Source: Acidobacteria bacterium 28-1
GTDB taxonomy: Bacteria > Acidobacteriota > Blastocatellia > Pyrinomonadales > Pyrinomonadaceae
DNA: 64,000 nt
Assembly (NCBI GenBank): GCA_002050365.1
Contig: MWYZ01000108.1
Location: 16,754-80,753 of the forward strand
Direction: 5' to 3'
The stretch's first letter is position 1. Each line of letters starts with the position of its first letter. Made by a program: the position numbers and the translations under genes. The notes below the pieces were generated by a model, which was given only the letters and a program-made list of their open reading frames with translations, was not told where the DNA came from and ran no database searches. Shown here one piece after another: positions 4,969 to 59,666 of the stretch.

Positions 4969-5259
4969 ATGTCTTTACAGTATTTGAAAGAAGCCGTGTC
5001 AAACGACGACACAGAAAAGCTGATTCGCTACGTGCGCCTACATTTCGGCGACGGCAGCGAAGCGGCGGGGAAGAAAGAAATTGATAAAGCGTGGATTGAA
5101 GCCTTGAAACTGCTGCTCGACGTTCCCGCAACGAAGCGCGAATTTATTTTGCAAACTTTAGCTGAAAACGACGCGGCGACGCTCGCGCATCTTTTCTTTC
5201 ATCTACATTTTTATTTTGTCGAGCGTTCGGGAGAGTGGATTCACGATGGACGAGTCTAA
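4969..5259 (+). CDS. Hypothetical small protein
   Basis: 96-codon ATG ORF immediately upstream of the GrdB-family gene, overlapping it by 14 nt in another frame. No recognisable motif. Confidence 0.35.
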   Translation: MSLQYLKEAVSNDDTEKLIRYVRLHFGDGSEAAGKKEIDKAWIEALKLLLDVPATKREFILQTLAENDAATLAHLFFHLHFYFVERSGEWIHDGRV

Positions 5260-6067
5260 AGAAAACGATTCACCGCAACTTCGTCCCGGTTTATGGGCGA
5301 CGGTCAATGAACGCTATCCGGGTTCGATGATTACGAAAAGCGATTTTATTCCGCTGGCGAAATTGAAAAAACCTTTGTCAGAATCACGCTTGACTTTTGT
5401 CAGTACGGCGGGCGTTCAGCCAAAAGGCAGTTTGCCGTTCGACACGGTTCATCCGGTCGGTGATTATACTTTTCGGCGCGTGCCTGCCGATTCAAAGCCT
5501 GAAGATTTAGAAATCCATCAACTTAAATATCCGACTGTCGGCGCAGATAAAGATTTAAATGTTATTTTTCCGATTGAGCGACTTCAGGAATTAGCAAAGG
5601 AAAAAATTATCGGCGAACTTGCCCCGAATTTCTTTTCGTTTATCGGCTACAATATGAATCCCGAAATGCTCGAAGAAAAACTGGCGGAAGACATCGCCGA
5701 AGCGGTCAAAGTGGAAGGCTCGGACATTGCACTGCTCGCGCCCGCCTGACCGATTTGCCATCAGAGCATTGCGCTGGTTCAGCGCGCCATCGAAAAGAGA
5801 GGAATTCCGACCGTTTCAATTAGTGTTGCTTTAGATGTAACCGAACACGTCAAACCGCCGCGCGCCGTCTTCGTGCCGTTTATGATGGGACATCACTTCG
5901 GCGTGCCGTTTCACACCGAATTACAGCGAAGAATTATTCTCGAAGCATTAGATTTTTTAATGGCGGCGGAGCGAAGCGGAGAAGTGAAAATGCTGCCGCT
6001 AAAATGGGCGCAGGCGCGGCGCGAAGCGATTGAAATCAAGCGGAAACTCAAATTAAGGAAAGACTAA
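5246..6067 (+). CDS. Glycine/sarcosine/betaine/D-proline reductase selenoprotein-B-family protein; candidate selenoprotein with in-frame UGA at 5747-5749
   Basis: Track ORFs 5216..5749 and 5873..6067 are in the same frame, and there is no further stop between 5750 and 5872. Read-through gives ...SDIALLAPA-U-PICHQSIALVQRAIEKRGIPTVSISVALD..., a UxxC motif. ATG 5246 follows a GGGAGAG RBS. Confidence 0.6.
5771..5785 (+). other. Candidate SECIS-like hairpin GCGCUG-GUU-CAGCGC
   Basis: Perfect 6-bp stem with a 3-nt GUU loop, starting 22 nt after UGA 5747-5749. Confidence 0.35.
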
Positions 6068-34981: not shown

Positions 34982-36049
34982 TCAACAAATTCTTGGAAGT
35001 TGTTCGCCGAGCTGCAGATCTACGACGCGAGTGCCGCCGATACCGGTTTTAGCGACGACCATTCCGGCGTGTTCGGCGACGACTTCGCCGATGATTTCCG
35101 CTTTTTCGCCAAACTTATTTGAGCGCATCTTTTCGAGCATTTCGTCGGCATATTCGCGCGACAGAATCGCCACGAGTTTGCCTTCGTTGGCGACGTAAAG
35201 CGGGTCAAGTCCGAGCATTTCGCACGCCGAGCGCACAATGCGCGGAACGGGCAAACTGTTTTCCTGAAGGCGAATTCCGACGTTTGAAGACTTGGCGATT
35301 TCATTTAACACCGAAGCCACGCCGCCGCGCGTCGCGTCGCGCAGAACGTGAATTTCTTTTGTAACTTCGAGCATTTCCGCAACTAATCCATTCAACGGCG
35401 CACAGTCAGACAAAATCGGCGCGTCAAACTCTAAGCCTTCGCGGACGCTCATAATCGCAATTCCGTGCAGACCGATTTCGCCCGAAACAATGACGACATC
35501 GCCCGCTTGCGCTAGATTCGGCGCGATATTTACGCCTCCGGAAACGATGCCGATACCACTCGTGTTGATAAAAACGCCGTCGCCTTTGCCGCGCTCGACA
35601 ACCTTCGTATCGCCGGTGACGATGCGCACATTCGCAGTGAGCGCGGCTTGGCTCATCGAACCGACGATTCTACCAAGATTTTCCATCTCGAAACCTTCTT
35701 CGATGATAAAACCCGCGCTTAAAAACATAGGCTTTGCGCCGCTCATCGCCACGTCGTTGACCGTGCCGTTGATTGCCAAATCGCCGATGTTGCCGCCGGG
35801 AAAAAATAACGGATTGACGACAAAAGAATCGGTGGAATATGCGAGCCGTGCGCCATTTTGCAAAATTCCATTTAAATCAATCGTCGCCGCGTCGCCCAAT
35901 TTTTCCAGCGTTTCATTTGAGAAGGCGGGCAGGAAAAGATTTTCGATTAACTCGTTTGACAATTTTCCGCCGCCGCCGTGTCCGAGAACAATTTTCGGAT
36001 AATCACGAAGCGGCAAAGGGCAAGTCCAACTGTTAAAATCTAAATTCAT
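34982..36049 (-). CDS. hypE: [NiFe]-hydrogenase maturation protein HypE
   Basis: It has the PurM-like fold pattern, an N-terminal CPLP...GHGGGG and the diagnostic C-terminal ...LPRIC. Confidence 0.9.
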   Translation of the reverse strand: MNLDFNSWTCPLPLRDYPKIVLGHGGGGKLSNELIENLFLPAFSNETLEKLGDAATIDLNGILQNGARLAYSTDSFVVNPLFFPGGNIGDLAINGTVNDVAMSGAKPMFLSAGFIIEEGFEMENLGRIVGSMSQAALTANVRIVTGDTKVVERGKGDGVFINTSGIGIVSGGVNIAPNLAQAGDVVIVSGEIGLHGIAIMSVREGLEFDAPILSDCAPLNGLVAEMLEVTKEIHVLRDATRGGVASVLNEIAKSSNVGIRLQENSLPVPRIVRSACEMLGLDPLYVANEGKLVAILSREYADEMLEKMRSNKFGEKAEIIGEVVAEHAGMVVAKTGIGGTRVVDLQLGEQLPRIC

Positions 36050-36110
36050 TTTGTTATTCAGGGATTATTAAATGTCTTCGGCGGCGGCGATTTTTGACGA
36101 ACGTCCGAAA

Positions 36111-36462
36111 TTACGATTGAGCAAATCTGACCCGCGTTTCTGTTGCCACGAAAAATTGCTCCGGCAATTTTTCAGCGTAATTTTCCAATAACCTTTGCAG
36201 AACCGCAATTTTATTCGCCGCCCGTTCATCTTCAAGCCGCAGAAGAATCACGCCTTTGTGTTCGCGCCGCTCGCGGAAAAACATCTCGCCGAAATCTTTG
36301 TCGTTAGTTACTAAAATCCAATCTTCAGTGAAAGCCTTTTCGATAACTTCATCATCGGTCATTCCACGCGCTTCGTTGAAAACGGAAAAGACTTCGTGAT
36401 GCGTGTTCGCGCAGCCATTTGGCGACTTTCGAGCCGGTGCATTCGTCAACCAGAAAACGCAT
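36111..36462 (-). pseudogene. DUF5615/PIN-like toxin gene with an N-terminal frameshift
   Basis: ATG 36462 opens MRFLVDECTGSKVAKWLREH, a canonical N-terminus, but that frame stops after 36 codons. The rest of the domain (HEVFSVFNEARGMTDDEVIEKAFTEDWILVTNDKDFGE...) is in the frame of the TTG-started track ORF 36111..36467. The frame switch is near 36400. Confidence 0.6.
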
Positions 36463-36463
36463 T

Positions 36464-36712
36464 TCAAACCGTCTCCACCGTCAGAGGCATAAAATCAATA
36501 CGGCTTAAAGATTCTCCGGCAAAAAGCAGACAGGCTTGAACATCTTCCGCCATCAAGCCTTCGTATTCATCTAAAATTTCTTCAATCGTCGCGCCGTGCG
36601 CCAATAAATTAATAATAAATTCGACCGTCAAACGTGTGCCTTTGATGACGGGCTTTCCGATCATCACTTTGGGATTGAGAACGATACGTTCGAGTAATTG
36701 TTGATTTCGCAT
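36464..36712 (-). CDS. DUF433 domain protein (antitoxin-like partner of the PIN-like gene)
   Basis: IVLNPKVMIGKPVIKGTRLTVEFIINLLAHGATIEEILDEYEGLMAEDVQACLLFA is typical DUF433. The stop overlaps the downstream gene start. Confidence 0.75.
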   Translation of the reverse strand: MRNQQLLERIVLNPKVMIGKPVIKGTRLTVEFIINLLAHGATIEEILDEYEGLMAEDVQACLLFAGESLSRIDFMPLTVETV

Positions 36713-36769
36713 ATTTCAACCTCGGCTTTATTTTCGCACAAACTTTTTTGTAATCAAACTTTATTGGTT

Positions 36770-37201
36770 TCAAGTCGTTTTGCCGGGTAAATAATAAAAT
36801 CGCAAAATGATAAGTCCGGCGATTGCCGCCGCGCACAGCAGTAAATCGAGCGCGGTGATGTTCGGATTGACCGTCTTACGGGCGAGGACGAAAACCACGA
36901 CTTCGACCGCCGCGCTCATTCGATGATACAGCAGAAGAAACGCGAACTCAGCGGCAATGGCAATCAGCAAAACATTTTCGACGATTCTTTGCAGAGCGAC
37001 ATACTCGTCATTCTGTTGCCAGAGTTGAGGAAAATCGCGGACAACCGTATCGTAAGCGGCGATGCCAGCCGCAATCAACAGCAACAGGGCAAGCACTGAA
37101 AGAAACAAATGAATGACAACGCCGACATAATTTGCGATGGCACGTTCGATTTTGGTTTCTTTGCCCGTTCCGATTACGTCTTTTTCCGTTTCTTCAGTCA
37201 T
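36770..37201 (-). CDS. Small integral membrane protein, possibly PsiE-like
   Basis: 143 aa with four hydrophobic segments. The IVENVLLIAIAAEFAFLLL region is reminiscent of the PsiE family. The assignment is tentative. Confidence 0.4.
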   Translation of the reverse strand: MTEETEKDVIGTGKETKIERAIANYVGVVIHLFLSVLALLLLIAAGIAAYDTVVRDFPQLWQQNDEYVALQRIVENVLLIAIAAEFAFLLLYHRMSAAVEVVVFVLARKTVNPNITALDLLLCAAAIAGLIILRFYYLPGKTT

Positions 37202-37208
37202 AAAACTT

Positions 37209-37714
37209 TCAGTCCAACAAATCGCGCACCGCCTGCCGCACCAAATCAGTTGTCAATCCATAAACCAAGTGCGAAGAAAGGGCGTAAGCGTGCGTCGAAA
37301 GCGGATATTGGGTTGCCGGTTTTGCAAGTCCGAGCGCGGGCACGACGACATCATCCGCAACCAGCCAAACCGCCGCGCCGAACGGAAGCCCCAATCCGAC
37401 TGTCGTCATCGGCGCAATCTCGGAAGCAATACCGTAAATCAAGCCCGACATTGCGCCCATCGCGTAATGCGCCGCTTCGCCCGCCGGTTCTTTTTCGCTT
37501 TTCTTTAATCGGTGGTCGAAAACCGCTTTGGAAATTCCTTCGGCGGCTTTGACGTTTGCCGGTTCGTCTTCCTTTTTTTTTTTGATTTTTTCTCTTCTTC
37601 CGAAAGCGCGCTTAAAAGCGTCTGAAATGCGCTCATCACGAAAGAAGCCACCAGCCCGCCGACGAGTCCGGCAACCGCTCCTTTTACCACATCGCCCTCA
37701 TTTGTTTTTTTCAT
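37209..37714 (-). CDS. DUF1440-like membrane protein interrupted by a frameshift in an A11 tract (37573-37583)
   Basis: ORF 37505..37714 (MKKTNEGDVVKGAVAGLVGGLVASFVMSAFQ...) and ORF 37209..37460 are in different frames. The second frame is open upstream to the A-run and reads KKKKEDEPANVKAAEGISKAVFDHRLKKSEKEPAGEAAHYAMGAMSGLIYG..., giving one continuous DUF1440-type protein if the run were A12. Confidence 0.6.
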
Positions 37715-37768
37715 ATAATCTCTTTAATTTCTTTCACAGATTGTTTTGAAAAGAGTTGCAGTCGCAAT

Positions 37769-38080
37769 TCACACACTAAACTCTTTTGGCTCAATCTTAA
37801 TTTCCTTTAGAATTTCAAAATAGCTGTCGAAAATATACTCCATTTCTTCCGTGTCAAAATCGAAACTATCCCAATCATCAAAATATTTTTGTATTTCTTG
37901 AATTACAAATTGGTTAGTCGGATGAGTTTTGTAGAGATTTATCAGAAAGTCAATAAAAGTTTTGACAGCCAATTGCATCTCTTCAATAGTTGACTCTTCT
38001 GAATGATTCAAGCCGCGTTCACCCCATTCATCCAACGGAAAAAACTGCTTGGCTTTTAAATCATTTAAAGTTTCTATCAT
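37769..38080 (-). CDS. Acidic AT-rich ORFan, start overlaps the hypD stop (ATGA)
   Basis: 103-aa ORF rich in D/E/F/I, in visibly AT-rich DNA. No recognisable motif. Confidence 0.45.
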
Positions 38081-39186
38081 ATTGAATGCTCTGCCTTCGG
38101 TGCTAATCGTCCGTAATTATAATAAGCCGCGCACGCGCCCTCGCTCGAAACCATTGTCGCGCCGAGCGGTTTGCGCGGCGTGCAGTTTTTGCCGAAGCAT
38201 TCGCATTCGTGCGGTTTAATCATTCCTTGCAAGACTTCACCGCTTCGACAGAGAGGCGATTCGACGGTGTTTATTCCCGTCACATCAAACTTCGCTTCGG
38301 CATCGAACTGGCGATATTTTTCATTCAAACGCCAGCCGCTTTGCGGAATAATGCCAATGCCGCGCCACGCACTGTCAGTCGTGCGAAAAACTTCGGCGAG
38401 CATCGTTTGCGCGGGAATGTTTCCGTCGAAATTAACTACTCTTTTGTAGCCGTTTTCGATTTCGTGTCGCCCGCTTTCGAGTTGCATCACCACGCGGCGA
38501 ATGCCTTCCAAAACGTCAACCGGCTCAAAGCCCGTCACGACAATCGGAACTTTGTATTTTTCGACGAGCGGCGGGTATTGCGCGTAGCCCATCACCGAAC
38601 AGACATGACCGGCGGCAAGAAATCCTTGGACGCGATTGGTCGGCGAGTCCATAATCGCGGCAATCGCGGGCGGCACGAGAACGTGCGAAACCAGCATCGA
38701 AAAATTTTCGAGATTTTGCTGTTTTGCCTGGAAAACCGCCATTGCATTTGCAGGCGCGGTCGTTTCAAAACCGATGCCGAAAAAGACGACTTCCTTTTCG
38801 GGATTTTCCCGTGCAATTTTCAGCGCGTCGAGCGGCGAATAAACCGTGCGAACATCGCCGCCTTCGCTTTTGACGCGAAACAAATCCTTCTCGCTTCCGG
38901 GAACGCGCAGCATATCACCGAACGAACAGAAAATTACATTCGGTTTGGCGGCAATCGCTAGAGCTTTGTCAATCATATCGAGCGGCGTCACGCAGACCGG
39001 ACAGCCCGGACCGTGAATCAGTTCGATATTTTCCGGAAGGAGCTGGTCAATGCCGTGCCGAATAATCGAATGCGTCTGACCGCCGCAAACTTCCATAATC
39101 GCCCACGGGCGCGTGGTGGCGGCGCGAATCTCCGATAAGATATTTTGCGCTAGTTCTGGGTCACGAAACTCTTGCAGATATTTCAT
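38077..39186 (-). CDS. hypD: [NiFe]-hydrogenase maturation protein HypD
   Basis: [13 protein letters not shown]..., CGGQTH and [10 protein letters not shown] motifs. ATG 39186 follows an AAGGAG RBS. Confidence 0.9.
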
Positions 39187-39454
39187 TTTGTACTCCTTGG
39201 GCTTCCGTTGTCGCACCGAGTTCTTCTTCTAAAACGCCCATCTCTCGAAATATCTGAAGCGTTTCGAGAGCCGTTTTTTCGTCTAATTTTTCGATGGCAA
39301 AACCGACGTGGACGAGCGCGTATTCACCGATTTTAATGTCCGGCACATACGCCAAACAGATGTTTTTGGTGATGCCGTCGAAATCAATTTTGCCCATCTG
39401 CACGCCGTCGGCTTCAAATTTATTAACGATTTTTCCGGGAATTGCTAAACACAT
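39161..39454 (-). CDS. hypC: [NiFe]-hydrogenase maturation chaperone HypC
   Basis: The N-terminus is [10 protein letters not shown]. The 3' end overlaps the hypD start by 26 nt. Confidence 0.85.
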
Positions 39455-39500
39455 AATTTTTTGTCCTTTATATCAACTATAAAACGATTTTCTATTCAAA

Positions 39501-40418
39501 TTATGAAACGCGATTTTCATAAATATATTTATAAACGTTTTCATTTTTGAGAGTTGATTTTATTTTTGATTTTATTTCTTCCTTATTCGGCAATTTATAT
39601 TCTTTGTCGAAAAATGACCAAGCTACTTCTTCTTTGCCCATATAGATGTAACGCAAAACTATATCAAGCCTGTTGGATAAATAATTACTTTCATTGCTCG
39701 GATTTAACCGCTTTACTTCATTCTCGATTCCCGCTAATAAATAGTCCTGAAACATTGGATTGGCGGGGAAATATTTTCTTGCGTCTTTGTCATATTTGAA
39801 AATGATTTCTGGAAGCGGGGTTTCCGCCATTGACATATTTTCAAACATATAAAAATTAGTAAGCGGCAAAGAAATTTCATACACTCCATCTTTATCAATG
39901 TCTATAACATTGAATTCTTCCCGCCCGACACCATAATCTTTACTATCGAAAATCACCCGTGCTTCAGATGATAAATCAATAACCCAGTGCCTTCCACCGC
40001 GAGGTATTGTTTGTGAAACAGCAAGTTGTTTTGTTCCTTTACCCAAGAAAGGAAATAAGCCGAAATCGGTTGCGTTTCCCGCACCAAAATAAACTCCGTC
40101 AAACGTATCTAATACTTTATTTTTCTTTTTTAAAACGGCATAAGAAACCTCAACCGATTCAGGTTTTGATTTCATTTCTGGTGGATATTCCAATTTAACT
40201 TTCTTTTTTAGTTTAACTACATCATAACAGTTGAAAGAGAGTGAATCTTTATCAACAAAAATGCTGTCAATTTGTTCAGGTTCTTCTTTAGACGAATTAG
40301 AATTAGTCGTATTTTGTAATCCTGGAGTAATTGCAGATTGAGAAACTGTTTGAGCTTCGCACGCCAAAAAAGTTGGCGCGAATATGAAAAGAATAAATAA
40401 AAAGTAGAATTGTTTCAT
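39501..40418 (-). CDS. AT-rich hypothetical lipoprotein
   Basis: The signal plus lipobox is MKQFYFLFILFIFAPTFLAC. Length is 305 aa with no recognisable domain. Composition is much more AT-rich than the flanking hyp genes. Confidence 0.55.
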   Translation of the reverse strand: MKQFYFLFILFIFAPTFLACEAQTVSQSAITPGLQNTTNSNSSKEEPEQIDSIFVDKDSLSFNCYDVVKLKKKVKLEYPPEMKSKPESVEVSYAVLKKKNKVLDTFDGVYFGAGNATDFGLFPFLGKGTKQLAVSQTIPRGGRHWVIDLSSEARVIFDSKDYGVGREEFNVIDIDKDGVYEISLPLTNFYMFENMSMAETPLPEIIFKYDKDARKYFPANPMFQDYLLAGIENEVKRLNPSNESNYLSNRLDIVLRYIYMGKEEVAWSFFDKEYKLPNKEEIKSKIKSTLKNENVYKYIYENRVS

Positions 40419-40480
40419 TTAAAAATCTTACTTATATTTCCGCCTTTACGACAAAATGCCATTGTAGAAATTCCAACCAT

Positions 40481-40819
40481 TCATTCCCCAATAATTTCAT
40501 TCAGTCCTTCAATCACTAACTCCAACTCATCGGCTGATGCTCTGCCCAATTTCTTTCCTAATCGTTTCACTGACAAAACTCTGATTTGACTGATTTTCAC
40601 CCAGGACTTCTTTGGCAAATTGGAATCGGTCAATTCGAGCGTCAAAGGAAAACCCGCGCTCGGCGGCTGACTTGTCAATGCAACCGCAATGACTGTTCCC
40701 GAGCGGTCGTTAAAAACGTTCTGACTCAACACTAGGACGGGACGCAAGCCGGATTGTTCGTGTCCTTGCGTCGGGTCAAGACTCGCCCAGATAATGTCGC
40801 CCCTTAATATTCGAGCCAT
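40481..40819 (-). CDS. mazF: MazF/PemK family endoribonuclease toxin
   Basis: RGDIIWASLDPTQGHEQSGLRPVLVLSQNVFNDRSGTVIAVALTSQ is the canonical MazF/PemK N-terminal region. Confidence 0.85.
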   Translation of the reverse strand: MARILRGDIIWASLDPTQGHEQSGLRPVLVLSQNVFNDRSGTVIAVALTSQPPSAGFPLTLELTDSNLPKKSWVKISQIRVLSVKRLGKKLGRASADELELVIEGLNEIIGE

Positions 40820-41046
40820 TCCGCTACCTCGGAAGCCAAGCCTTCATCGGCAAGAGCCTGCTCGAATTTTTTATCGAGCTTCGCGCACTCACGCGCTAAA
40901 CGATTGCGGTCGAGTCGTGAAACCTTTTCTTCAACGGCGGATTGAATGGCTTGACTGCGATTTGAAAAAACTTGTTCTTTAACCAGAATATCAACCTTTT
41001 TCAGCAAGTTTGATTCAATGGAAATTGTTACTTTTGCGACACTCAT
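40804..41046 (-). CDS. Ribbon-helix-helix (CopG/MazE-type) antitoxin
   Basis: MSVAKVTISIESNLLKKVDILVKEQVFSNRSQAIQSAVEE is RHH-like. It overlaps the mazF start by 16 nt. The track ORF's longer N-terminus would run into hypB. Confidence 0.7.
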   Translation of the reverse strand: MSVAKVTISIESNLLKKVDILVKEQVFSNRSQAIQSAVEEKVSRLDRNRLARECAKLDKKFEQALADEGLASEVAEWLEY

Positions 41047-41065
41047 AATTAAGTAATACCATTGG

Positions 41066-41734
41066 TCATACTTGCCCGTCAACAAATTTAGCTTGCAGAA
41101 ATTCCAGCCATTTGTCCATTCCCTCGCCCGTTTTTGACGAAACTTCAAACACCTGCATCGCGGGACGCACGGCTTGGATGCTCGCGTGTGCCGCTTTCAA
41201 ATCAAACTCGACAGCTTCCGCCAAATCCATTTTTGTAATCACGGCGACATCAGCCGTATTGAAAATCGTCGGATATTTGAGCGGCTTATCTTCGCCTTCG
41301 GTCGTTGACATCAGCACGACGCGCAACGCTTCGCCCAAATCGTAACTTGATGGGCAAACGAGATTGCCGACGTTTTCGATAAACAAACAATCGAGTTCGT
41401 TCAAATCCCAATCTTGCAGCGAATCTGAAACCATCTGCGCTTCGAGATGACAAATCGTGCCGGTGACGATTTGTTTGACGGGAACTTCCGCCCGCGCCAA
41501 ACGCGCCGCATCGTTCGCCGTCGCCAAATCGCCGACGAGCGCGGTAATGCGATACTGCGAACGCAGCTTCGTTAAAGTCTTTTCCAGAAAAGCGGTTTTG
41601 CCCGAACCCGGACTCGACACAAAACTGGCGACAAAAACTCCGGCTTTCTGAAAACGAATTCGTAGTTCACGCGCCAAAACATCGTTGTGTTTCAGCACGT
41701 TTTGTCTGACTTCGACTAAGCGAGTTTGTGTCAT
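41066..41734 (-). CDS. hypB: [NiFe]-hydrogenase nickel-incorporation GTPase HypB
   Basis: It has the P-loop SSPGSGKT, IENVGNLVCP and the NKxD-like ITKMDL. Confidence 0.9.
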   Translation of the reverse strand: MTQTRLVEVRQNVLKHNDVLARELRIRFQKAGVFVASFVSSPGSGKTAFLEKTLTKLRSQYRITALVGDLATANDAARLARAEVPVKQIVTGTICHLEAQMVSDSLQDWDLNELDCLFIENVGNLVCPSSYDLGEALRVVLMSTTEGEDKPLKYPTIFNTADVAVITKMDLAEAVEFDLKAAHASIQAVRPAMQVFEVSSKTGEGMDKWLEFLQAKFVDGQV

Positions 41735-42078
41735 TCAATAATCTCCAATGCCGTTACTTCCAATTCTCTGCCTTGCATAACTTCCGGTGTCGGCGCATTG
41801 CAAACAGGACACAAAAAATTATTAATCTCTGCAATCGTTCGATCTGTTTTGCAATTCTCACAATGCACGACGACGGGAATTTCCGTAATCTCAAGTCGTG
41901 AACTTTCGAGTGTCGTTCCCTGACAGGCAATTTCCCACGAAAAAAGCAGCGCGTCTTTGACCACTCCCGAAAGCCGTCCGAGTTTCAAATGAACCGCGTC
42001 AACTTTCGCTCCGCCGCGCTTGTTTGATTCTTCGATTCCCATCTCAACGATACTCAGTGCAATTGAAAGTTCGTGCAT
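41731..42078 (-). CDS. hypA: [NiFe]-hydrogenase nickel-incorporation protein HypA
   Basis: The N-terminus is MHELSIALSIVE. The zinc site is formed by CENC...CPVC. Confidence 0.9.
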   Translation of the reverse strand: MHELSIALSIVEMGIEESNKRGGAKVDAVHLKLGRLSGVVKDALLFSWEIACQGTTLESSRLEITEIPVVVHCENCKTDRTIAEINNFLCPVCNAPTPEVMQGRELEVTALEIIE

Positions 42079-44992: not shown

Positions 44993-45009
44993 CAATCAAT
45001 CTCCCTCTT

Positions 45010-51493: not shown

Positions 51494-51790
51494 ATGGATT
51501 CGATTACGATTTGGACATATTCGCTGATTGTCGGCGTAGTAGTGATTTTGATTGTCGCGGTTCTGCTGATTGCAATCGTTTTAACTGCCCGCAAAATTGA
51601 CGACCACGCCAAAGATATTTGGCAAGCCGGAAAACTAATCGCCGGAAATACGGTTTCGATTTGGATGTTGAAAGACACTAACGTCGTCGCGGGCGATATT
51701 CTTACAACCGCTCAATCCATCGCCGGAGTCGCCGGAGAAATCAATAATAAACTTGACGATTTGGGACAGGCATTAACCAAAGGAGCGTAA
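51494..51790 (+). CDS. Small bitopic membrane protein, type A (paralogue of 52176..52508)
   Basis: It has a GGAGGA RBS and an N-terminal TM segment (LIVGVVVILIVAVLLIAIVL). It then reads TARKIDDHA...LIAGNT...TN.VA... in an Ala/Gly/Leu-rich helical tail. Confidence 0.7.
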   Translation: MDSITIWTYSLIVGVVVILIVAVLLIAIVLTARKIDDHAKDIWQAGKLIAGNTVSIWMLKDTNVVAGDILTTAQSIAGVAGEINNKLDDLGQALTKGA

Positions 51791-51795
51791 ATTAT

Positions 51796-52089
51796 ATGGA
51801 ACTGCTGACTTGGTTGACGATTATTTACGCGGTGATTTTGGTGCTGACCTTGGCGGTCGGGTTGATTGCGATTTTGACGACTTTGATGAGCGTTGCCAAA
51901 AAACTCGGCGCAATCAGCGCGGGTTTGCAGGTGGTCGAGCAAAATACCGCGCCGCTCAATGCTGGAGTTGAACAATTAAACGGCTCGCTCGGCGGATTGG
52001 CTGGCGGTTTGATGGTCGCCGAATCTAGTTTTGCTTCGGCGAACGAGCATTTGCAGGAAACGCTCGACGCGGTAACGGTTGCGCGTTAA
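51796..52089 (+). CDS. Small bitopic membrane protein, type B (paralogue of 52508..52807)
   Basis: It has an AAGGAG RBS and an N-terminal TM segment. It then reads ...VEQNTAPLNAGVEQLNGSLGGLAGG...SANEHLQ. Confidence 0.7.
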   Translation: MELLTWLTIIYAVILVLTLAVGLIAILTTLMSVAKKLGAISAGLQVVEQNTAPLNAGVEQLNGSLGGLAGGLMVAESSFASANEHLQETLDAVTVAR

Positions 52090-52093
52090 TTAC

Positions 52094-52163
52094 GTCAGAA
52101 CCGCCTGCGGTAGCGGGCGGGTATTCGACGCAGCTACCCGCCCGCTACCGCAGGCGGTCTGAC
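52094..52163. repeat. REP doublet (inverted pair) forming a roughly 27-bp stem
   Basis: GTCAGAACCGCCTGCGGTAGCGGGCGGG (52094-52121) pairs with CCCGCCCGCTACCGCAGGCGGTCTGAC (52137-52163). It has the same sequence as the REPs flanking the RAYT gene at 55001-55617. Confidence 0.85.
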
Positions 52164-52175
52164 CGGAGGGTTTAT

Positions 52176-52508
52176 ATGTTTTTAATCGAACTAACTCCTA
52201 ATGCAGAACTCGCGGTTAAAATCGCGTGGTCTGTCGGATTGATTCTCGCCCTGATTGTCACGGCGATTGATGTTCATTTGTTAATTCGCGTAATTAAAGC
52301 CGCCCGCAAAATTGACCGCTTGGCGGGCAGAACTTTGACGGCGGCTGGCGGAATCGCGGGCAATACTTCAGCACTAAAAAATTTGACGGCAACCAACGAA
52401 GTCGCCGCCGCGCTGATTGCGGGCGCGACACCGATTGTAAGTGTCGCCGATGCGATTGATAAAAAACTGTCGGCAGTTTCGACATTTTTCGGCGGAGGTA
52501 AGAAATAA
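52176..52508 (+). CDS. Small bitopic membrane protein, type A (paralogue of 51494..51790)
   Basis: It has a GGAGGG RBS and a TM segment. It then reads KAARKIDRLA...GIAGNTSALKNLTATNEVAAALIAG. Confidence 0.7.
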   Translation: MFLIELTPNAELAVKIAWSVGLILALIVTAIDVHLLIRVIKAARKIDRLAGRTLTAAGGIAGNTSALKNLTATNEVAAALIAGATPIVSVADAIDKKLSAVSTFFGGGKK

Positions 52509-52807
52509 TGGACACGGTTTTATTATTGACAATTTTAACGATTGTCGCCGCCGCAGTTTTACTCATTGCGCTCGGTATTGGATTGTTTCAAATCGCGCTT
52601 GGCTTGGAAGGCATCGGTTCGAGCCTCGACAAAATCGCTTATGGCGTGCGGGCAATTGAAACCGAAACCTCGCCTTTGCCCATTTGCATTGACGGCATCA
52701 ACGGTTCGCTCGCGCCGGTGGTCGGCGGTTTTGAAGCGGTCGGCGAAAGTTTAACGAGTGCAGACGCACATTTAGGAAATGTTGCCGGAGTTTTGGGCAT
52801 TAAGTGA
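52508..52807 (+). CDS. Small bitopic membrane protein, type B (paralogue of 51796..52089)
   Basis: The start overlaps the previous stop (TAATG), with a GGAGG RBS. After a TM segment it reads ...IETETSPLPICIDGINGSLAPVVGG...SADAHLG. Confidence 0.7.
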   Translation: MDTVLLLTILTIVAAAVLLIALGIGLFQIALGLEGIGSSLDKIAYGVRAIETETSPLPICIDGINGSLAPVVGGFEAVGESLTSADAHLGNVAGVLGIK

Positions 52808-52815
52808 AGAAATGA

Positions 52816-52893
52816 AACCACAGATAGACACAGATGATTTTAAGATAAAACAAAATCGGTTTTAATCTTTTGTTATCCGTGTTTATCTGTGGT
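52816..52893. repeat. Second copy of the CACAGATA-type palindromic element
   Basis: AACCACAGATAGACACAGAT (52816-52835) matches the reverse complement of ATCCGTGTTTATCTGTGGT (52875-52893) with two mismatches plus one unpaired terminal base. Same family as 19085-19182. Confidence 0.75.
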
Positions 52894-52906: not shown

Positions 52907-53728
52907 ATGAAAATAGGAATCAGCGGCAAAGGTGGTTCGGGTAAAACGACAATTTCGGCGACGCTGGCGCGTGTCTTTGCGCGTCAAGGTTTTCCCGTTT
53001 TGGCGATTGACGGCGACCCGAATCCGAATCTGGGAATGGCTCTGGGTTTAAAAGCCGAAACGCTCGAAGAAACTCATTCTATTCCGCGCAGTATTGTCGA
53101 AAGAAAAGAAGACGCGGACGGCAAAATGCGGATGGTTTTAAAAGATTCGGTGGAAAACATTACTGCGCTACACGGCATTGCCGCGCCAGACGGAATTCGT
53201 TTGATAGTTGGCACGAAAGTCGAAAATCCGGGCGCGGGCTGACTCTGTTCCGCACACGCTGCCGTGCGCAGCCTGATGGGAGAAATCGTTTCGGAAGCCG
53301 ACAATATCACTGTGATGGATATGGAAGCGTCTTTGGAACACCTGAGTCGCGGCACGGTTCGCCACGTTGACGTTTTGCTGATTGTTACCGAACCGTATTA
53401 TCGTTCGCTTGAAACCGCCCGCCGGACTTTGCCGCTCGCTCGCGGTCTCGGCATCAATCACATTTACGCCGTCGTCAATAAATATCGAAGCGCGGAAGAC
53501 GAGAAAGCCGTGACGAGTTTTTGCCGAAACAATGATTTGGAAATTATCGCCAAAATTCCTTTTGACGAAAACGTAACGAAAGCCGATTTGGAAGGAAAAT
53601 CTTTATACGATTTTAATTCCGCCGCGCCCGTTGTGACGGAAGTTGAAAAACTCGCTGCGACATTGCGCGAGCGTGTGCCGCTGAATAATTCTTCGGCGAG
53701 CAAAATATTAACCAAGCCGAACTGTTAG
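52907..53728 (+). CDS. CooC/MinD-type P-loop NTPase (metallocentre maturation factor-like) with an in-frame UGA at 53240-53242; candidate selenoprotein
   Basis: Track ORFs 52907..53242 and 53264..53728 share one frame, with no further stop in between. Read-through gives MKIGISGKGGSGKTT...LIVGTKVENPGAG-U-LC-SAHAAVRSLMGEIV...DMEASLEHLSRGT... The UGA falls at the first Cys of the CooC-type G.GCxC metal motif. Confidence 0.55.
53258..53272 (+). other. Candidate SECIS-like hairpin GCUGC-CGUGC-GCAGC
   Basis: 5-bp GC stem with a 5-nt loop. It is extendable by CA/UG across a C-C mismatch and starts 16 nt after the UGA. Confidence 0.3.
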
Positions 53729-53743
53729 ATTGAGGAGAATTTT

Positions 53744-55000
53744 ATGTTAGACGACCCTAAATCACTAGCCGGAAACCCGACTGACAATAACGTCGCGCCG
53801 CAGGTCAAACCAGAAGAGAAACTGGCGGAGCTTTCCTTCGGACCTTTGAAGACGGTTCACGTTTTTTGGCTGGCGGGAATGAGCTGCGACGGCTGCACGG
53901 TTGCCGTGGCGGGCGCGACGCAGCCGCCGCTTGAAAATTTGCTGACCGGAACGGTTACCGGCGTTCCGCAGGTTATTCTTCATCATCCGGTGTTATCAAT
54001 CGAAGCGGGCGAGGAATTTATTGCAAATTTTTACAAGGCTGAACGTGGCGAACTCGACGCGCCTTATGTCGTTTGCTATGAAGGCTCAATCGCTGACGAA
54101 AGAATCGCGGCGGCAACCGGCGGATATTTCTCGGCAATCGGTTCGGAACGCTTGAGCGATGACGTTCACCGTCCGATTCCGACAACCGAATGGCTCAAAA
54201 GACTTGCGCCGGGCGCGGCGGCTGTCATTGCAATCGGAACTTGCGCAACGTGGGGCGGAATTCCCGCCGCCGCCGGAAACCCGACGAACTCGATGAGTTT
54301 GATGGATTTTCTCGGCAAAGATTATCGCGGCACCGCCGGTTTGCCGGTCATTAACATTCCGGGATGCGCGCCCGTCGGCGACAATTTTACCGAAACGGTG
54401 GCGATGGTTTTGCTTTTCCTGCAAGGCATCGGACCGCTGCCCGAATTTGACGAACTCGGTCGTCCGGCGTGGCTTTTCAAGGAAACCGTGCATCAGCGAT
54501 GCGTTCGCGGCGGTTATTATGAAGAAGGTATTTTTGCCACCGAATACGGCGGCAAAGAGTGTCTGGTGGAAATCGGCTGTTGGGGTCCGGTTGTGCAGTG
54601 CAATATCACGCAACGCGGAGCAATCAATCACATGGGCGGCTGTATGAACACGGGCGGCGTTTGTATCGGCTGCACGATGCCCGGTTTTCCCGACAAATTC
54701 GCGCCCTTTTATAAAACGCCGCCGGGTTCGACGGTTTCCAGCAATGCCGTGCGGACTTACGGCGCAGTCATCAGGCGGTTGCGGCGAATGACGCAGCAGT
54801 TTCAAAATATGGAGCCGCGCTGGGATGAAAGCAATCAGCCCGTTCCGAGCGGTTGGGGGCAAGTCGAAAAACCGTCTCTGGTCAATAAGGCAATCCATTA
54901 TCTTTATGAAAAAATGCAGTATCGCGGTTCGGTCAGACCGGGCGATTATGTCGGTGAAGGCTCGCTTAAAGCGAAGGGAAAACATACGCCGGAAGTTTAA
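53744..55000 (+). CDS. [NiFe]-hydrogenase small subunit without twin-arginine signal (group 1h/5, HhyS-like)
   Basis: VHVFWLAGMSCDGCTVA is the proximal cluster motif, and further Cys clusters include GCWGPVVQCN and GGVCIGCTMPGFPD. The N-terminus lacks RRxF. It has a GAGGAG RBS. Confidence 0.9.
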   Translation: MLDDPKSLAGNPTDNNVAPQVKPEEKLAELSFGPLKTVHVFWLAGMSCDGCTVAVAGATQPPLENLLTGTVTGVPQVILHHPVLSIEAGEEFIANFYKAERGELDAPYVVCYEGSIADERIAAATGGYFSAIGSERLSDDVHRPIPTTEWLKRLAPGAAAVIAIGTCATWGGIPAAAGNPTNSMSLMDFLGKDYRGTAGLPVINIPGCAPVGDNFTETVAMVLLFLQGIGPLPEFDELGRPAWLFKETVHQRCVRGGYYEEGIFATEYGGKECLVEIGCWGPVVQCNITQRGAINHMGGCMNTGGVCIGCTMPGFPDKFAPFYKTPPGSTVSSNAVRTYGAVIRRLRRMTQQFQNMEPRWDESNQPVPSGWGQVEKPSLVNKAIHYLYEKMQYRGSVRPGDYVGEGSLKAKGKHTPEV

Positions 55001-55626: not shown

Positions 55627-57534
55627 ATGTGCTTCAAAAATTTACCGATTGAATTCGACGAGCAGGGCAAGGCTTTTTTAAAGGGCGGCATCCGCGACCC
55701 GTATTCGACCAAAAACGCGATTACCTCGGTTGGCGAAGTCAAGCAAATGCCATACGACACGGTGCGCGAACTGCTGGCGCGAAACGGCTACATCAAAGAC
55801 GTTGATTTCGACCCGGTTACGCGCGTCGCCGGCGCGCTCGCTTTTCACGGCGTGGCGGATTTGGAAAACCGCAAGTTTATCGAAGCGCGTTCGATGGCGA
55901 CTTTGTTTCGCGGCTACGAAATTATTATGCAGGGACGCGACCCGCGCGACGCGATTTTTATCACGAGCCGCGCCTGCGGCGTGTGCGGCGGCGTTCACTC
56001 GTCGTGCGCCGCTTTAGGAATCGAGATGGCTTTTGGCATCACGCCGCCGCCGCTCGGAATTATCGTGCGAAATCTGATGCTCTCGCTCGAATTTTTATAT
56101 GACAATCCGCTGCATCTTTTCCTGCTCGCCGGACCCGATTATTCGGAACTGATAGTCAAAGCGACGACTCCGAGTTTGTGGGAAAAAGCCCTAAAGACCG
56201 CCGCCCCGAATGCCGAGCATCACGGCTATGCGATGATGAGCGATTTGATGCGCGATATGAACCCGCTTTCAGGAAATCTTTATCTCGAAGCGCTGCATAT
56301 GACGCGCGTCGCGCGTGAAGCGTATGTCGTTATCGGCGGTAAATATCCGCATCCCGAAACGCTCGTGCCGGGCGGTGTCAGCACGACCGTCACTCTGCAA
56401 ACTTTCAACGAAATTTACAGCCGGCTGCATCAATTTTTCGATTACTCGAAAAAAGTGGTAATGATTTGGGACGATTTGACCGACTTTTTCTACGATGCAA
56501 ATCCCGAATATCGGAAAAACGGAATGCGGGCGGCGAATATGGTTGACTTGGGAATTTGGGATGACCCTGACGTTTACGACGCGACCTACGAAAATTGCAA
56601 CGAATGGGGCAAAAATCGCTGGTCAACGCCGGGCGCAATTATCGGCGGCGAACTTGTTACCACCGATTTACAAAGTATCAATTTGGGGATGGAAGAGTTT
56701 ATCGAACACTCGTTCTACGAACAATGGTCAAACGGCGATGGTAATGGCGGCGGTTTGAAACATCCGACCGACCCGAAAGGTGCGCCGCTCTCGCCGTATC
56801 ACCCGTGGAACAAGCAAACTCTGCCGCGTCCGACGGGACAAAATTGGCGCGAAAAATATACCTGGGCAACGTCACCGCGCTGGGATAGGCAGGTTTTTGA
56901 AGCCGGTTCTTACGCCCGCGTTTGGAACACCGCCGCCGCGCAGAAAATTCGCCCGAATCCGTTTATTGAATCTACGGGAACGAGCCTGAAAATGCGTCTG
57001 CCAAAAGCGGCAAAACCGGAAATGAATATCGAATGGAAGATTCCGACCGATTGGAACACTTTCGAGCGCAACAAAGCGCGTGCTTACGGCGTGGCTTTTA
57101 CGGCACTCGTCGCAATGAACGATTGGCTCAAAGGTCTCGACCTTTTGAAAAAAGGAGAAACAAAAGTCAGCACCGAATTTGAGATTCCGAAAACAAACCG
57201 CATCGGCGTCGGATTCTGGGGGGCGGGACGCGGTTTTCTCTCGCATCATATGGAACTCGACAAGGGCATCGTAACCAACTATCAAATCGTTACGCCTTCG
57301 ACGATTAACGCTTCGCCGATGGACGCTTGGGACAAACACGGAGCGTATGAAGAAGCCGTGCTGAACACGCCGATTCTCGAAGAATTCGACAAACCGGAAA
57401 ATTACAAAGGCATTGATTTGCTGCGGACTTTGCGGAGTTTCGACCCGTGTATGCCCTGCACAACGCACATCTACGCGGGTGAGCACAAAGTTGTCAGGGA
57501 AATCAACACTTGCGCTTGCGGCGTTGACGGTTAA
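55627..57534 (+). CDS. [NiFe]-hydrogenase large subunit (group 1h/5, HhyL-like)
   Basis: The N-terminal motif is SRACGVCGGVHSSCAA and the C-terminal motif is FDPCMPCTTH, followed by a 21-aa tail that would be removed by the maturation protease. Confidence 0.9.
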   Translation: MCFKNLPIEFDEQGKAFLKGGIRDPYSTKNAITSVGEVKQMPYDTVRELLARNGYIKDVDFDPVTRVAGALAFHGVADLENRKFIEARSMATLFRGYEIIMQGRDPRDAIFITSRACGVCGGVHSSCAALGIEMAFGITPPPLGIIVRNLMLSLEFLYDNPLHLFLLAGPDYSELIVKATTPSLWEKALKTAAPNAEHHGYAMMSDLMRDMNPLSGNLYLEALHMTRVAREAYVVIGGKYPHPETLVPGGVSTTVTLQTFNEIYSRLHQFFDYSKKVVMIWDDLTDFFYDANPEYRKNGMRAANMVDLGIWDDPDVYDATYENCNEWGKNRWSTPGAIIGGELVTTDLQSINLGMEEFIEHSFYEQWSNGDGNGGGLKHPTDPKGAPLSPYHPWNKQTLPRPTGQNWREKYTWATSPRWDRQVFEAGSYARVWNTAAAQKIRPNPFIESTGTSLKMRLPKAAKPEMNIEWKIPTDWNTFERNKARAYGVAFTALVAMNDWLKGLDLLKKGETKVSTEFEIPKTNRIGVGFWGAGRGFLSHHMELDKGIVTNYQIVTPSTINASPMDAWDKHGAYEEAVLNTPILEEFDKPENYKGIDLLRTLRSFDPCMPCTTHIYAGEHKVVREINTCACGVDG

Positions 57535-57623: not shown

Positions 57624-57857
57624 ATGACTAACGAAGAAATTTTGCGCGAAATTAATTCTCTGCCGCTTGAAGCTCAACGCCAGATTGAAGATTTTGTTTT
57701 TTTTCTGCGAGAGCGTTACAAATCGCCGCAACCGGAAAGCATTCCGGCTTCTGATTTACAAACCGAAGCGTTTGTCGGAATGTGGCGCGACCGCGAAGAT
57801 ATAAGCGACAGTTCGGCTTGGGTTCGCAGCGTCCGCGAAACACATTGGAGCAAGTGA
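57624..57857 (+). CDS. VapB-type antitoxin (DUF2281-like)
   Basis: The 77-aa protein MTNEEILREINSLPLEAQRQIEDFVFFLRERY... ends 1 nt before the PIN toxin gene. Confidence 0.6.
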   Translation: MTNEEILREINSLPLEAQRQIEDFVFFLRERYKSPQPESIPASDLQTEAFVGMWRDREDISDSSAWVRSVRETHWSK

Positions 57858-57858
57858 G

Positions 57859-58261: not shown

Positions 58262-58765
58262 GTGAAAGTTTTAATCGCCGGAGTCGGTCATCCCAACTTA
58301 AAAGATTTATCTTTCGGACAGGTTTTGCTTCCGCATTTAAAAAAGCAAAAATGGGCGAAAGATTTCGACCTTGAAAATTTGAGTTTCGGCGCGATTGCGG
58401 TTTTGCAGTGGTTTCAGGATTTTCCCGGTAAATACGAGAGAGTCGTTTTCGTTTCGGCGGCGGAACGCGCAGGACGCAAGCCCGGAACTTTGGACGTTTA
58501 TAAGTGGGATTTTGCGCCGCTTGACGAGGAAGTCGTGCAGGAATGCGTGGCTGAATCGGTCACGGGAATTATCAGTCTGGATAATTTGATGATGATTTTG
58601 CAGTATTTCAAGGCTTTGCCGCCGGAAGTCGTTGTGTTAGACCTTGAGCCGATTGATTCGGAAATTGGTTTTGAATGCAGTCCCGAAATTACGGCGCGTT
58701 TTGATGAGTTCGGCGAAATTATCAGAGAGAAGGCGACGGCAAAATTGGAAACTAAAAATGAGTGA
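58262..58765 (+). CDS. Second, divergent HupD/HyaD-like hydrogenase maturation protease homologue
   Basis: VLIAGVGHPNLKDLSFGQVL...RVVFVSAAERAGRKPGTLDVY parallels ILIAGIGNIFLGDDAFG...VTVFIDATPRGDAPGTIYL of the 44474..44992 protein. The GDD motif is not conserved. Confidence 0.55.
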   Translation: MKVLIAGVGHPNLKDLSFGQVLLPHLKKQKWAKDFDLENLSFGAIAVLQWFQDFPGKYERVVFVSAAERAGRKPGTLDVYKWDFAPLDEEVVQECVAESVTGIISLDNLMMILQYFKALPPEVVVLDLEPIDSEIGFECSPEITARFDEFGEIIREKATAKLETKNE

Positions 58766-59666
58766 AATAACCACGGAAGTTGCAGAAGAAACAACCGCTT
58801 TCGACCAATTAAATATCCTGCTCGAATCAATCGAACAGCACCCGGAAGAAGCGGTTCGCAACCACGTTCGCGCTCTGGTTTATACGCTGCTCGACCTTCA
58901 TCACGGCGCGTTGCAGCGCATTGTCGAAATAGTTTCCGCGCAGCCGACGGGCGAAAAAATATTGCAGGAATTAAGCGACGACGAGCTTGTGCAGGCGGTT
59001 TTGATGGTTCACGAATTGATGGCGCAGCCGCTTGAAACGCGCATTGAAAACGCGCTCGAAATCGCCCGCGAGCAACTGAAAATTTACGGCGCGGATGTCG
59101 AACTCATTGAAGTCAAAAACGGAGTTGCTCAATTAAAACTTTTTGGCGGCGCATCAACCGCGAATGTTTCGACCACTATTCTAAAAGCCGAAATCGAACA
59201 CGCTTTGCACGAACACACGCCCGATTTGCTCAACGTCGAATACGAAGACACGATTGCTCCGACGCGCCCGCCGAAATTGGTGCAGATTCTGCCGCGCCAA
59301 CCCGTTCAAAACACCGCGTCGAAGGAATTTTTTATGGCGATAATCCGCGCCGACCAGGTTCCTGATAACGGACTGCGTGTTGTTGAAACGGGCGGCATCA
59401 ATTTGCTCTTGTGCAATGTGGCGGGAACGATTTACACTTTTCAAAATGCTTGCGCCGAAGGGAATTTGCCGCTTGACGAAAGTATTTTAGAAGACGGCGT
59501 TTTGACTTGTCCGTGCCACGGTTATCAATTCGACGCGCGGCAAAAAGGACGCTGTTTGACCGACCCGAAATTGCGGCTTGAAGCGTTGCCGATGCGAGTG
59601 GAAAATGATGTTGTTAAAGTCGCTTTGCCAAAGGAGGACGAAATAAATGCAGGAACAAACCATTGA
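58758..59666 (+). CDS. NifU-like + Rieske-like two-domain protein (HhyE-like accessory protein)
   Basis: The NifU C-terminal-like segment is IENALEIAREQLKIYGADVELIEVKNGVAQLKLFGG. The Rieske-like C-terminus carries CPCHGYQFD. ATG 58758 overlaps the previous gene by 8 nt. Confidence 0.6.
   Translation: MSEITTEVAEETTAFDQLNILLESIEQHPEEAVRNHVRALVYTLLDLHHGALQRIVEIVSAQPTGEKILQELSDDELVQAVLMVHELMAQPLETRIENALEIAREQLKIYGADVELIEVKNGVAQLKLFGGASTANVSTTILKAEIEHALHEHTPDLLNVEYEDTIAPTRPPKLVQILPRQPVQNTASKEFFMAIIRADQVPDNGLRVVETGGINLLLCNVAGTIYTFQNACAEGNLPLDESILEDGVLTCPCHGYQFDARQKGRCLTDPKLRLEALPMRVENDVVKVALPKEDEINAGTNH

Follow-up and report, generated by a model that had tools for sequence, protein, structure and literature searches.

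Is a gene that is interrupted by an in-frame TGA broken, split in two or read through? This question is raised by a gene for a CooC-like nucleoside triphosphatase (NTPase) that lies at positions 52907-53728 of a 64,000-nucleotide stretch of Acidobacteria bacterium 28-1 (contig MWYZ01000108.1, positions 16,754 to 80,753 of the forward strand; the whole stretch is called the window below), beside a [NiFe]-hydrogenase gene cluster. An initial annotation, made from the nucleotide letters, had proposed that the TGA encodes selenocysteine (Sec). The comparative sequence analyses reported here indicate that the gene is very probably genuine and translated, with UGA read as Sec. From homology and gene context, and with appreciably less confidence, we favour delivery of metal to the adjacent hydrogenase as the function of the ATPase that it encodes, and nickel as the specific metal carried is a tentative proposal.

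Translation of positions 52907-53728 of the plus strand gave one frame with a single internal stop, TGA 53240-53242, and a terminal TAG at 53726-53728. The two open reading frames (ORFs) of this region, 52907-53242 and 53264-53728, lie in that same frame and are separated by nothing but this TGA, as the initial annotation had stated. The joined product has 273 amino acids (aa), that is 111 aa, the residue encoded by UGA (U) and a further 161 aa, and the residues around the UGA read VENPGAG-U-LC-SAHAAVR. The window has 18 places where an in-frame TGA joins two ORFs, and since chance often produces such bridges, one of them by itself is no evidence of recoding. TGA is the ordinary terminator of 12 of the 31 long ORFs in the window; the genetic code is therefore standard and a reassignment of UGA was rejected.

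To compare the codon among relatives, one genome per GTDB species was searched, which yielded 80 loci; other contigs were added, and the codon was read in 85 homologous sites. It was TGA in 77 sites, TGC or TGT in eight and TAA or TAG in none. This tabulation, which had been suggested beforehand as a check, shows that the bridge is more than a chance event, since TGA is kept in so many homologous sites and Cys codons occupy the others. Protein identity of the homologues to the window protein ranged from 99% down to about 45%. The UGA forms came from contigs labelled Acidobacteriota, Chloroflexota (Chloroflexia, Herpetosiphonaceae, Anaerolineaceae, Tepidiformaceae, Limnocylindria and Ktedonobacteraceae), Actinomycetota, Myxococcota (Polyangiaceae) and Vulcanimicrobiota. 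Two further labels are doubtful: a contig labelled 'Heliobacteriaceae' (locus L025), 79-83% identical to the Pyrinomonadaceae genes, and one labelled 'Candidatus Saccharimonadales' (L072) carry this aerobic hydrogenase cluster, and both are probably mis-binned or mislabelled contigs of metagenome-assembled genomes (MAGs).

Among the best 120 matches of a protein search, more than 90 clusters were exactly 150 aa long and 86-95% identical to the part after Met123, and a few were full-length; the named 150-aa clusters were from Acidobacteriota, Pyrinomonadaceae and Blastocatellia MAGs. Gene callers report a 111- or 112-aa gene followed by a 150-aa gene in the contigs of relatives, which indicates the same interruption there, and the NCBI and JGI names of the fragments are 'hypothetical protein' or 'CO dehydrogenase maturation factor'. 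The closest full-length proteins, P0001 and P0002 (72-76% identity), read GSG-C-LC. In a rough neighbour-joining tree, built without support values, the Cys forms occupied at least four separate positions among the Sec forms, which suggests that Sec is old in the family and was replaced by Cys several times.

The ratio of nonsynonymous to synonymous substitution rates (dN/dS), calculated in pairs against close relatives with unsaturated dS, was 0.006-0.10 before the UGA and 0.04-0.09 after it. In the 11 codons from the UGA to the next Met, the residues L-C-x-x-H-x-x-V-R are kept and the changes are mostly third-position or synonymous, while other clades with the UGA have Val, Ile, Thr or Leu in place of the Met.

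The initial annotation had also pointed to a GC-rich hairpin at a distance from the UGA compatible with a selenocysteine insertion sequence (SECIS). This hairpin, GCUGC-CGUGC-GCAGC, has a loop that begins 20 nt after the UGA, and RNAalifold run on 74 distinct UGA-form sequences independently recovered exactly the same five pairs. Standard pairing at the five core pairs was found in 96-100% of the sequences, with compensatory changes at two to three of the five (UA:54/CG:19 and GC:48/AU:20/UA:2). The covariation score was 0.255, as against 0.128 in shuffled controls (0/500 reached 0.255) and at most 0.114 with slid partners, all controls that leave phylogeny out of account. In several of the double changes one arm has an amino-acid substitution (Ala to Thr, Ser to Gly) and the other a switch between synonymous Arg codons. 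The loop is N-G-U-[G/U]-C in every UGA form, its G and U being invariant, and the stem, a 5-bp core here, reaches 8 bp in Chloroflexota. The minimum free energy (MFE) is -7.5 kcal/mol for the core and -13.9 kcal/mol for the extended form, the lower stem of which is conserved only partly in other clades. Published limits for bacterial SECIS (bSECIS) elements are a loop of 3-9 nt, an upper stem of 4-16 bp, a G in the first two loop positions, a distance of 16-37 nt from the UGA and an MFE of -7.5 kcal/mol or lower (PMC13188914). The hairpin lies within them, with a 5-nt loop, a stem of at least 5 bp, G at loop position 2 and a spacing of 20 nt. All five pairs were intact in 68 of the 74 distinct UGA forms compared with three of nine Cys forms (Fisher p 2e-4, uncorrected), and in distant Cys forms (Rhodothermales, Luteimonas, an alphaproteobacterium and Dormibacterota) the hairpin was reduced to three of the five pairs.

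A second in-frame UGA, at 5747 in the window, had been assigned to a known selenoprotein family, and this assignment was borne out by matches to TIGR04483 and PF07355 and by conservation of the UGA. TGA 5747-5749 lies in an A-U-P-I-C motif, and UxxC is the Sec motif listed for the PrdB/GrdB family (PMC13188914). Folding revealed a hairpin, GCGCUG-GUU-CAGCGC, at 5771-5785 downstream of this TGA. The best 120 clusters of homologues all end at 160-171 aa, that is at the UGA; several of them, from Pyrinomonadaceae, are named 'selenoprotein B family protein', and one homologue shares a 4.8-Mb contig with a CooC-like gene of the UGA form. Since the UGAs of the CooC-like and PrdB/GrdB-like genes are both conserved, at least two independent genes with in-frame UGA are maintained in the lineage, and the PrdB/GrdB-like gene is probably a second selenoprotein gene in an aerobic acidobacterium. 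It lends indirect support to the decoding of UGA as Sec in this organism.

These data bear on three other explanations of the interruption. A nonsense pseudogene, in which TGC or TGT mutated to TGA and the downstream ORF is decaying, was the alternative named in the initial annotation; a single mutation turns either Cys codon into TGA, chance bridges are frequent, and gene callers give fragments of 111 and 150 aa, the latter annotated as 'hypothetical protein'. Yet the same TGA recurs through five phyla, down to 45% protein identity, the sequence after the stop is under purifying selection with no frameshifts and no further stops, and the hairpin is conserved with compensatory changes, so that a pseudogene is excluded. 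Purifying selection on both halves would fit equally well a split gene, with UGA as true stop and a 111-aa P-loop half that assembles into an ATPase with a half of about 150 aa started at Met123 or Val119; ATG (MGEIV...) and GTG codons within 11 codons of the stop do exist in this clade and are used by gene callers. This arrangement is very unlikely because of the conservation of the UGA and of the codons between stop and Met: the stretch L-C-S/G-A-H-A-A/T-V-R-S, in which an invariant His and the metal motif's second Cys lie, is kept at the amino-acid level with synonymous changes, the Met is replaced in other UGA-bearing clades, the 'stop' is only ever TGA, and the Cys orthologues are single chains. 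We also consider it improbable that the UGA is read as Cys, Trp or Gly by a suppressor or near-cognate tRNA. The base after the UGA is C in every UGA form of alignment A1, UGA followed by C is a weak termination context, and the Sec machinery was not observed directly in the 64-kb window. Against such read-through stand the conserved hairpin with its G-U loop at SECIS spacing, the pairing of UGA with Cys at a metal ligand, which is the classic Sec signature, the use of TGA as a normal stop in the window, and the GrdB/PrdB-family gene of the same window and lineage with UGA at its UxxC motif.

Several observations count against a Sec gene. No tRNA, tRNA-Sec included, was found in the window by ARAGORN, and an Rfam scan of the whole window at the gathering threshold gave no match. 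SelD was absent among the proteins with AIRS domains in the window, of which HypE is the only one, and neither selA nor selB was present among the scanned ORFs of at least 300 aa (about half of those in the window). The folding energy of the single sequence is unremarkable relative to shuffles (z about -0.7 to -0.85); the argument from the hairpin therefore rests on covariation, for which the controls ignore phylogeny. Certain Cys forms, namely L003 and the Cys paralogues of the Ktedonobacteraceae loci L086 and L087, retain the hairpin; there it may be left over from a Sec ancestor, or it may result in part from conservation of the H-x-x-V-R codons. Lastly, all relatives are metagenome assemblies. 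With these points taken into account, we maintain that Sec is very probably encoded by the UGA.

What kind of protein would then carry the Sec? CooC1 is the ATP-dependent nickel-insertion factor of Ni,Fe-CO dehydrogenase, and AcsF is related to it. For protein-family searches with the 273-aa product, Cys was put in place of the stop. Pfam CbiA was matched (E 4e-19), no NCBIfam model scored at or above its curated cutoff, and the HypB family model was not matched, a genuine HypB being encoded elsewhere in the window (Table 1). CooC1 of Carboxydothermus hydrogenoformans (3KJE) was by far the best solved relative (E 8e-33, 29-30% identity). The alignment covers residues 1-240 against residues 1-238 and places U112 on Cys112 and Cys114 on Cys114 of the CooC1 motif C112-Y-C114, which agrees with the earlier assignment of the UGA to the first Cys of a CooC-type CxC metal motif. 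In the CooC1 dimer, metal is chelated by this motif at the interface of the two subunits (PMC3792862). The AlphaFold monomer model of P0001, the Cys orthologue with 76% identity, had a mean predicted local distance difference test score (pLDDT) of 84 and a predicted template modelling score (pTM) of 0.86. A Foldseek search of the PDB with this model returned CooC1 on top (E 7e-18, template modelling score 0.75-0.79), followed by MinD, FleN and NifH. The window protein is thus a full-length CooC homologue by sequence and by the predicted fold of its orthologue, in line with the complete deviant-Walker-A NTPase of 273 aa recognised at the outset. The loop immediately before the motif is the sole poorly defined internal segment of the model, as expected for an interface loop in a monomer. 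A His three residues after Cys114 ([U/C]-L-C-x-x-H) and Cys206 are invariant in the subfamily and distinguish it from CooC1; both may contribute additional ligands.

The features of the locus and of the window that are relevant here are collected in Table 1.

Table 1. Features of the CooC-like gene, the hydrogenase cluster and the second UGA-containing gene (positions in the window)
Feature	Position	Strand	Evidence
CooC-like deviant-Walker-A NTPase gene, UGA probably read as Sec	52907..53728	+	Translation, Pfam CbiA, CooC1 alignment, dN/dS
Deviant Walker A / P-loop GKGGSGKT, residues 7-14	52925..52948	+	Direct reading; invariant in 26 full-length homologues
U-L-C motif: UGA 53240-53242 (residue 112), Leu, Cys114	53240..53248	+	3KJE alignment, homologue codons
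Putative bSECIS core: 5-bp stem 53258-53262/53268-53272, 5-nt loop C-G-U-G-C 53263-53267	53258..53272	+	RNAalifold, covariation
Extended SECIS-like stem-loop, lower stems around core	53248..53282	+	MFE -13.9 kcal/mol for 53240-53285
Second probable selenoprotein gene, PrdB/GrdB-like; TGA 5747-5749	5216..6067	+	TIGR04483 E 1e-43, PF07355
Four tandem paralogous proteins of ~98-110 aa, one N-terminal transmembrane (TM) helix each (HylTM-like)	51494..52807	+	Hydropathy; synteny
[NiFe]-hydrogenase small subunit (HylS/HhyS-like)	53744..55000	+	Pfam Oxidored_q6, NiFe_hyd_SSU_C
[NiFe]-hydrogenase large subunit	55627..57534	+	Pfam NiFeSe_Hases E 2e-73
Hydrogenase maturation endopeptidase (HupD-like)	58262..58765	+	TIGR00072 E 6e-11, 42.5 bits against a curated cutoff of 47.45 bits
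NifU-Rieske fusion (HylE-like); true start probably downstream of the listed TTG	58644..59666	+	Pfam Rieske, NifU
hypE	34982..36049	-	NCBIfam E 2e-138
hypD	38077..39216	-	Pfam HypD E 3e-156
hypC	39161..39454	-	Recognised from translation
hypB	41066..41734	-	NCBIfam TIGR00073 E 1e-84
hypA	41731..42078	-	Recognised from translation

The small-subunit gene begins 15 bases after the NTPase gene, and this adjacency is kept in most related loci. A tblastn search indicated that the NTPase gene adjoins hydS and TM genes in nearly all UGA loci of every phylum, with hydL likewise syntenic in nearly all loci, and the hydrogenase is a likely client because this neighbourhood is conserved across phyla. The initial annotation knew of no such NTPase as a standard part of this hydrogenase type; judged by synteny, it is a regular component of the group-1l-like cluster. 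In Ktedonobacteraceae the canonical hydS-5TM-hydL order is found with the NTPase gene directly upstream, and two loci of this family (L086 8001-10283 and L087 8001-10395) carry two CooC-like paralogues, one with Cys and one with Sec, with a PadR regulator gene between them. A second CooC-like paralogue was sought in the window and, unlike in Ktedonobacteraceae, none was present. The Cys forms of other phyla stand beside HupD-like proteases. Neither cooS nor acs occurs in the window, and the genes conserved beside the NTPase gene are those of a [NiFe]-hydrogenase; the protein is therefore CooC-like rather than CooC proper. A replacement of HypB by the CooC-like protein was rejected, hypA and hypB being present in the window; with hypC, hypD and hypE present too, the CooC-like protein would be an additional accessory factor and not a HypB substitute.

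The gene content described for group 1l hydrogenases, namely HylS, HylL, several small single-TM proteins, a Rieske protein and HupD, is found in the cluster, and the structural genes of the published group 1l cluster likewise occur together with HylTM genes, a Rieske-type protein and HupD. No Pfam family was matched by the four HylTM-like proteins, and orthologues of the NifU-Rieske protein in loci L002 and L005 have about 295 aa. When aligned with the group 1h enzyme 5AA5, the large subunit has active-site motifs, TSRACGVCGGVH and SFDPCMPCTTH, that differ from those of 5AA5.

Paralogues and mobile elements were also observed around the clusters. The clusters also contain CooC-like paralogues of greater divergence (L081 about 1733-2030, L072 560 and 1234, L079 1-490 on the minus strand); one divergent paralogue reads RAGAG-U-TCGNH and also has TGA and hairpin, and that of L072 reads 'NPG*P*CG' with two stops. 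In L086 and L087 a TnpB-like (Cas12f1-like_TNB) gene lies just upstream of the CooC-like paralogues. Here the HylTM-like genes precede the NTPase gene; another acidobacterial clade has them between this gene and hydS, and Chloroflexota between hydS and hydL. In the window an ORF resembling an IS200/REP-associated (repetitive extragenic palindromic) tyrosine transposase (RAYT), 55042-55551 (+), is located between the small- and large-subunit genes, which are directly adjacent in relatives such as L002. A REP-like palindrome (ACCACAGATAGACAC ... GTGTTTATCTGTGGT) with 19-nt arms and a 39-nt spacer is present at 52817-52893, just upstream of the CooC-like gene, and again 34 kb away at 19086-19181 (5 matches, 0.06 expected); this element is possibly linked to the RAYT-like ORF at 55042. 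A toxin-antitoxin-like VapB/VapC pair, 57624-58251 (+), lies between hydL and the protease gene. Unrelated small genes intervene among the canonical hyp genes (34982..42078, minus strand), including small overlapping toxin-antitoxin-like pairs at 40481-41148 (-) between hypB and hypC and at 36111-36712 (-) between hypE and hypD. Upstream and on the opposite strand, the regions 46516-47749 (-) and 44474-44995 (-) encode a further protease for hydrogenase maturation along with DUF6084 and DUF5947 proteins; the window thus has two HupD-type proteases.

From homology and gene context the following mechanism is proposed. The UGA at 53240-53242 would be recoded to Sec by a SelB-type mechanism guided by the hairpin 53258-53272 inside the coding sequence, and the metal-chelating Cys-X-Cys of a CooC-type ATPase (MinD/SIMIBI class) would thereby be turned into Sec-X-Cys. 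ATP binding would bring about a homodimer, as in CooC1, in which two U-x-C motifs form a 2Se+2S site that holds a single ion of a thiophilic metal, Ni(II) being the most likely. On hydrolysis of ATP the metal would pass to a client. This may be the group-1l-like uptake [NiFe]-hydrogenase encoded next to the gene, an oxygen-tolerant enzyme, with the large subunit or an Fe-S/Ni site that is assembled together with HypA/HypB as the recipient. Se in place of S could provide tighter and faster-exchanging metal binding and spare the ligand irreversible over-oxidation in air, and a Sec ligand would suit aerobes that scavenge trace metal and trace H2.

The same selenoprotein could have a different task, in that its U-x-C might bridge an Fe-S cluster as in Mrp/NBP35/NifH-like proteins or regulate the ATPase as a redox-switched selenenylsulfide. 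Canonical nickel insertion is already provided for in this window by its standard factors HypA and HypB, so that a nickel role is not required and Fe-S or another metal is equally open. A NifU-domain protein is encoded in the cluster, with the small subunit and the NifU-Rieske protein as possible clients; the next-best matches by fold include Fe proteins of the NifH type; an altered ligand of the proximal cluster is reported for the small subunits of group 1l; and the invariant His and the extra invariant Cys206 set the subfamily apart from CooC1. On the other side, CooC1 is closest by both sequence and fold, well ahead of NifH and Mrp, and the spacing is that of the CooC C-x-C and not the CxxC of Mrp/NBP35. 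We consider such a role possible but rather doubtful. The occurrence of Cys and Sec paralogues in one cluster in some genomes is compatible with a nickel chaperone and with the Fe-S or redox roles alike. The proposal of metal delivery to a group-1l-like hydrogenase is also weakened by the affiliation of the cluster: the label comes from gene context and not from phylogeny, and the best solved relative of the large subunit is the group 1h enzyme 5AA5 with 43% identity (E 2e-148), where group 1l placement is defined by less than 40% identity to group 1h. Metal delivery to the adjacent hydrogenase nevertheless remains the role that we favour.

A review of May 2026, the fullest inventory so far, compiled 119 prokaryotic selenoprotein families and subfamilies (PMC13188914), and no CooC-, CbiA-, MinD- or ParA-type NTPase is found in its Table 1, in keeping with the initial remark that no Sec-containing CooC-like protein had been described. 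A full-text literature search, covering part of the journals, for CooC or 'CO dehydrogenase maturation factor' together with selenoprotein gave nothing relevant, and the main text of the deep-Sep and BSepDB papers makes no mention of CooC, nickel or hydrogenase. Within the literature covered, we regard the selenoprotein family that the protein represents as undescribed; it would be a known type of metallochaperone in a Sec variant, serving another client. The family is widespread and is currently cut in two by annotation pipelines. Most bacterial Sec biology is tied to anaerobes and redox enzymes; here Sec would be placed in a metal-trafficking ATPase of aerobic soil bacteria. The analysis also identifies an unlabelled conserved accessory gene for a hydrogenase type that is thought to dominate atmospheric H2 uptake in desert soils, the group 1l enzyme being reported as the prevailing hydrogenase in Antarctic desert soils, where it oxidises atmospheric H2. 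H2 uptake by these organisms is predicted to depend on selenium supply and on the CooC-like gene, and the Sec and Cys paralogues that stand side by side in Ktedonobacteraceae offer a natural comparison of what Sec contributes to metal delivery. A broader proposal, in which we place slightly less than even confidence, is that selenium is a hidden requirement for the assembly of group-1l-type hydrogenases and that the Sec CooC-like metallochaperone is ancestral to the gene cluster of this hydrogenase and widespread in it across five or more phyla of aerobes, Sec having reverted to Cys repeatedly. If this is true, the MinD/CooC ATPase class would gain its first selenoprotein, Sec would serve as a transient ligand of metal in transit, and selenium availability could limit the soil sink for atmospheric H2.

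Comparison with known systems places the window protein nearest to CooC1, with which it shares length, fold, the N-terminal deviant Walker A motif and the position of the metal motif (U112/C114 and C112/C114, respectively). CooC1 has Cys where the window protein would have Sec and lacks the invariant His after the motif. The partner of CooC1 is Ni,Fe-CO dehydrogenase, whereas the genomic partner of the window protein is a [NiFe]-hydrogenase cluster and not cooS/acs, and its hosts are aerobic soil bacteria. HypB and UreG, which are G3E GTPases, are likewise nucleotide-dependent dimerising metallochaperones of nickel enzymes with Cys ligands at the dimer interface (PMC3792862). The window protein is not of the G3E family, and the genuine HypB is encoded separately. 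The archaeal HypB of the Mrp/MinD type (3VX3) matched the window protein weakly and in the P-loop only (E 4e-4); we take it to be a MinD-type ATPase able to serve hydrogenase maturation. The published group 1l clusters likewise comprise small single-TM proteins, a Rieske-type protein and HupD; the group 1l papers mention neither CooC nor selenocysteine, and the cluster description names no CooC-like gene and no selenoprotein. In the window four TM genes precede the NTPase gene, whereas in the published group 1l cluster the TM genes separate hydS from hydL.

Among selenoproteins, the nearest entry by name in the inventory is a CobW-related selenoprotein with UxxC (PMC13188914). It likewise has Sec in a Cys-type motif, but the spacing is UxxC in place of the UxC found here. 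CobW proteins are P-loop NTPase metallochaperones of the G3E family, unlike the CooC-type NTPase. In the large subunits of [NiFeSe]-hydrogenases (2WPN, 5JSH) Sec replaces a nickel-ligating Cys, and the benefit proposed for it is protection from irreversible oxidation (PMC13188914). There the Sec is in the enzyme itself and the hosts are anaerobic sulfate reducers and methanogens, whereas in the window the large subunit keeps its Cys (C-terminal DPCMPC) and the Sec would reside in an accessory ATPase of aerobes.

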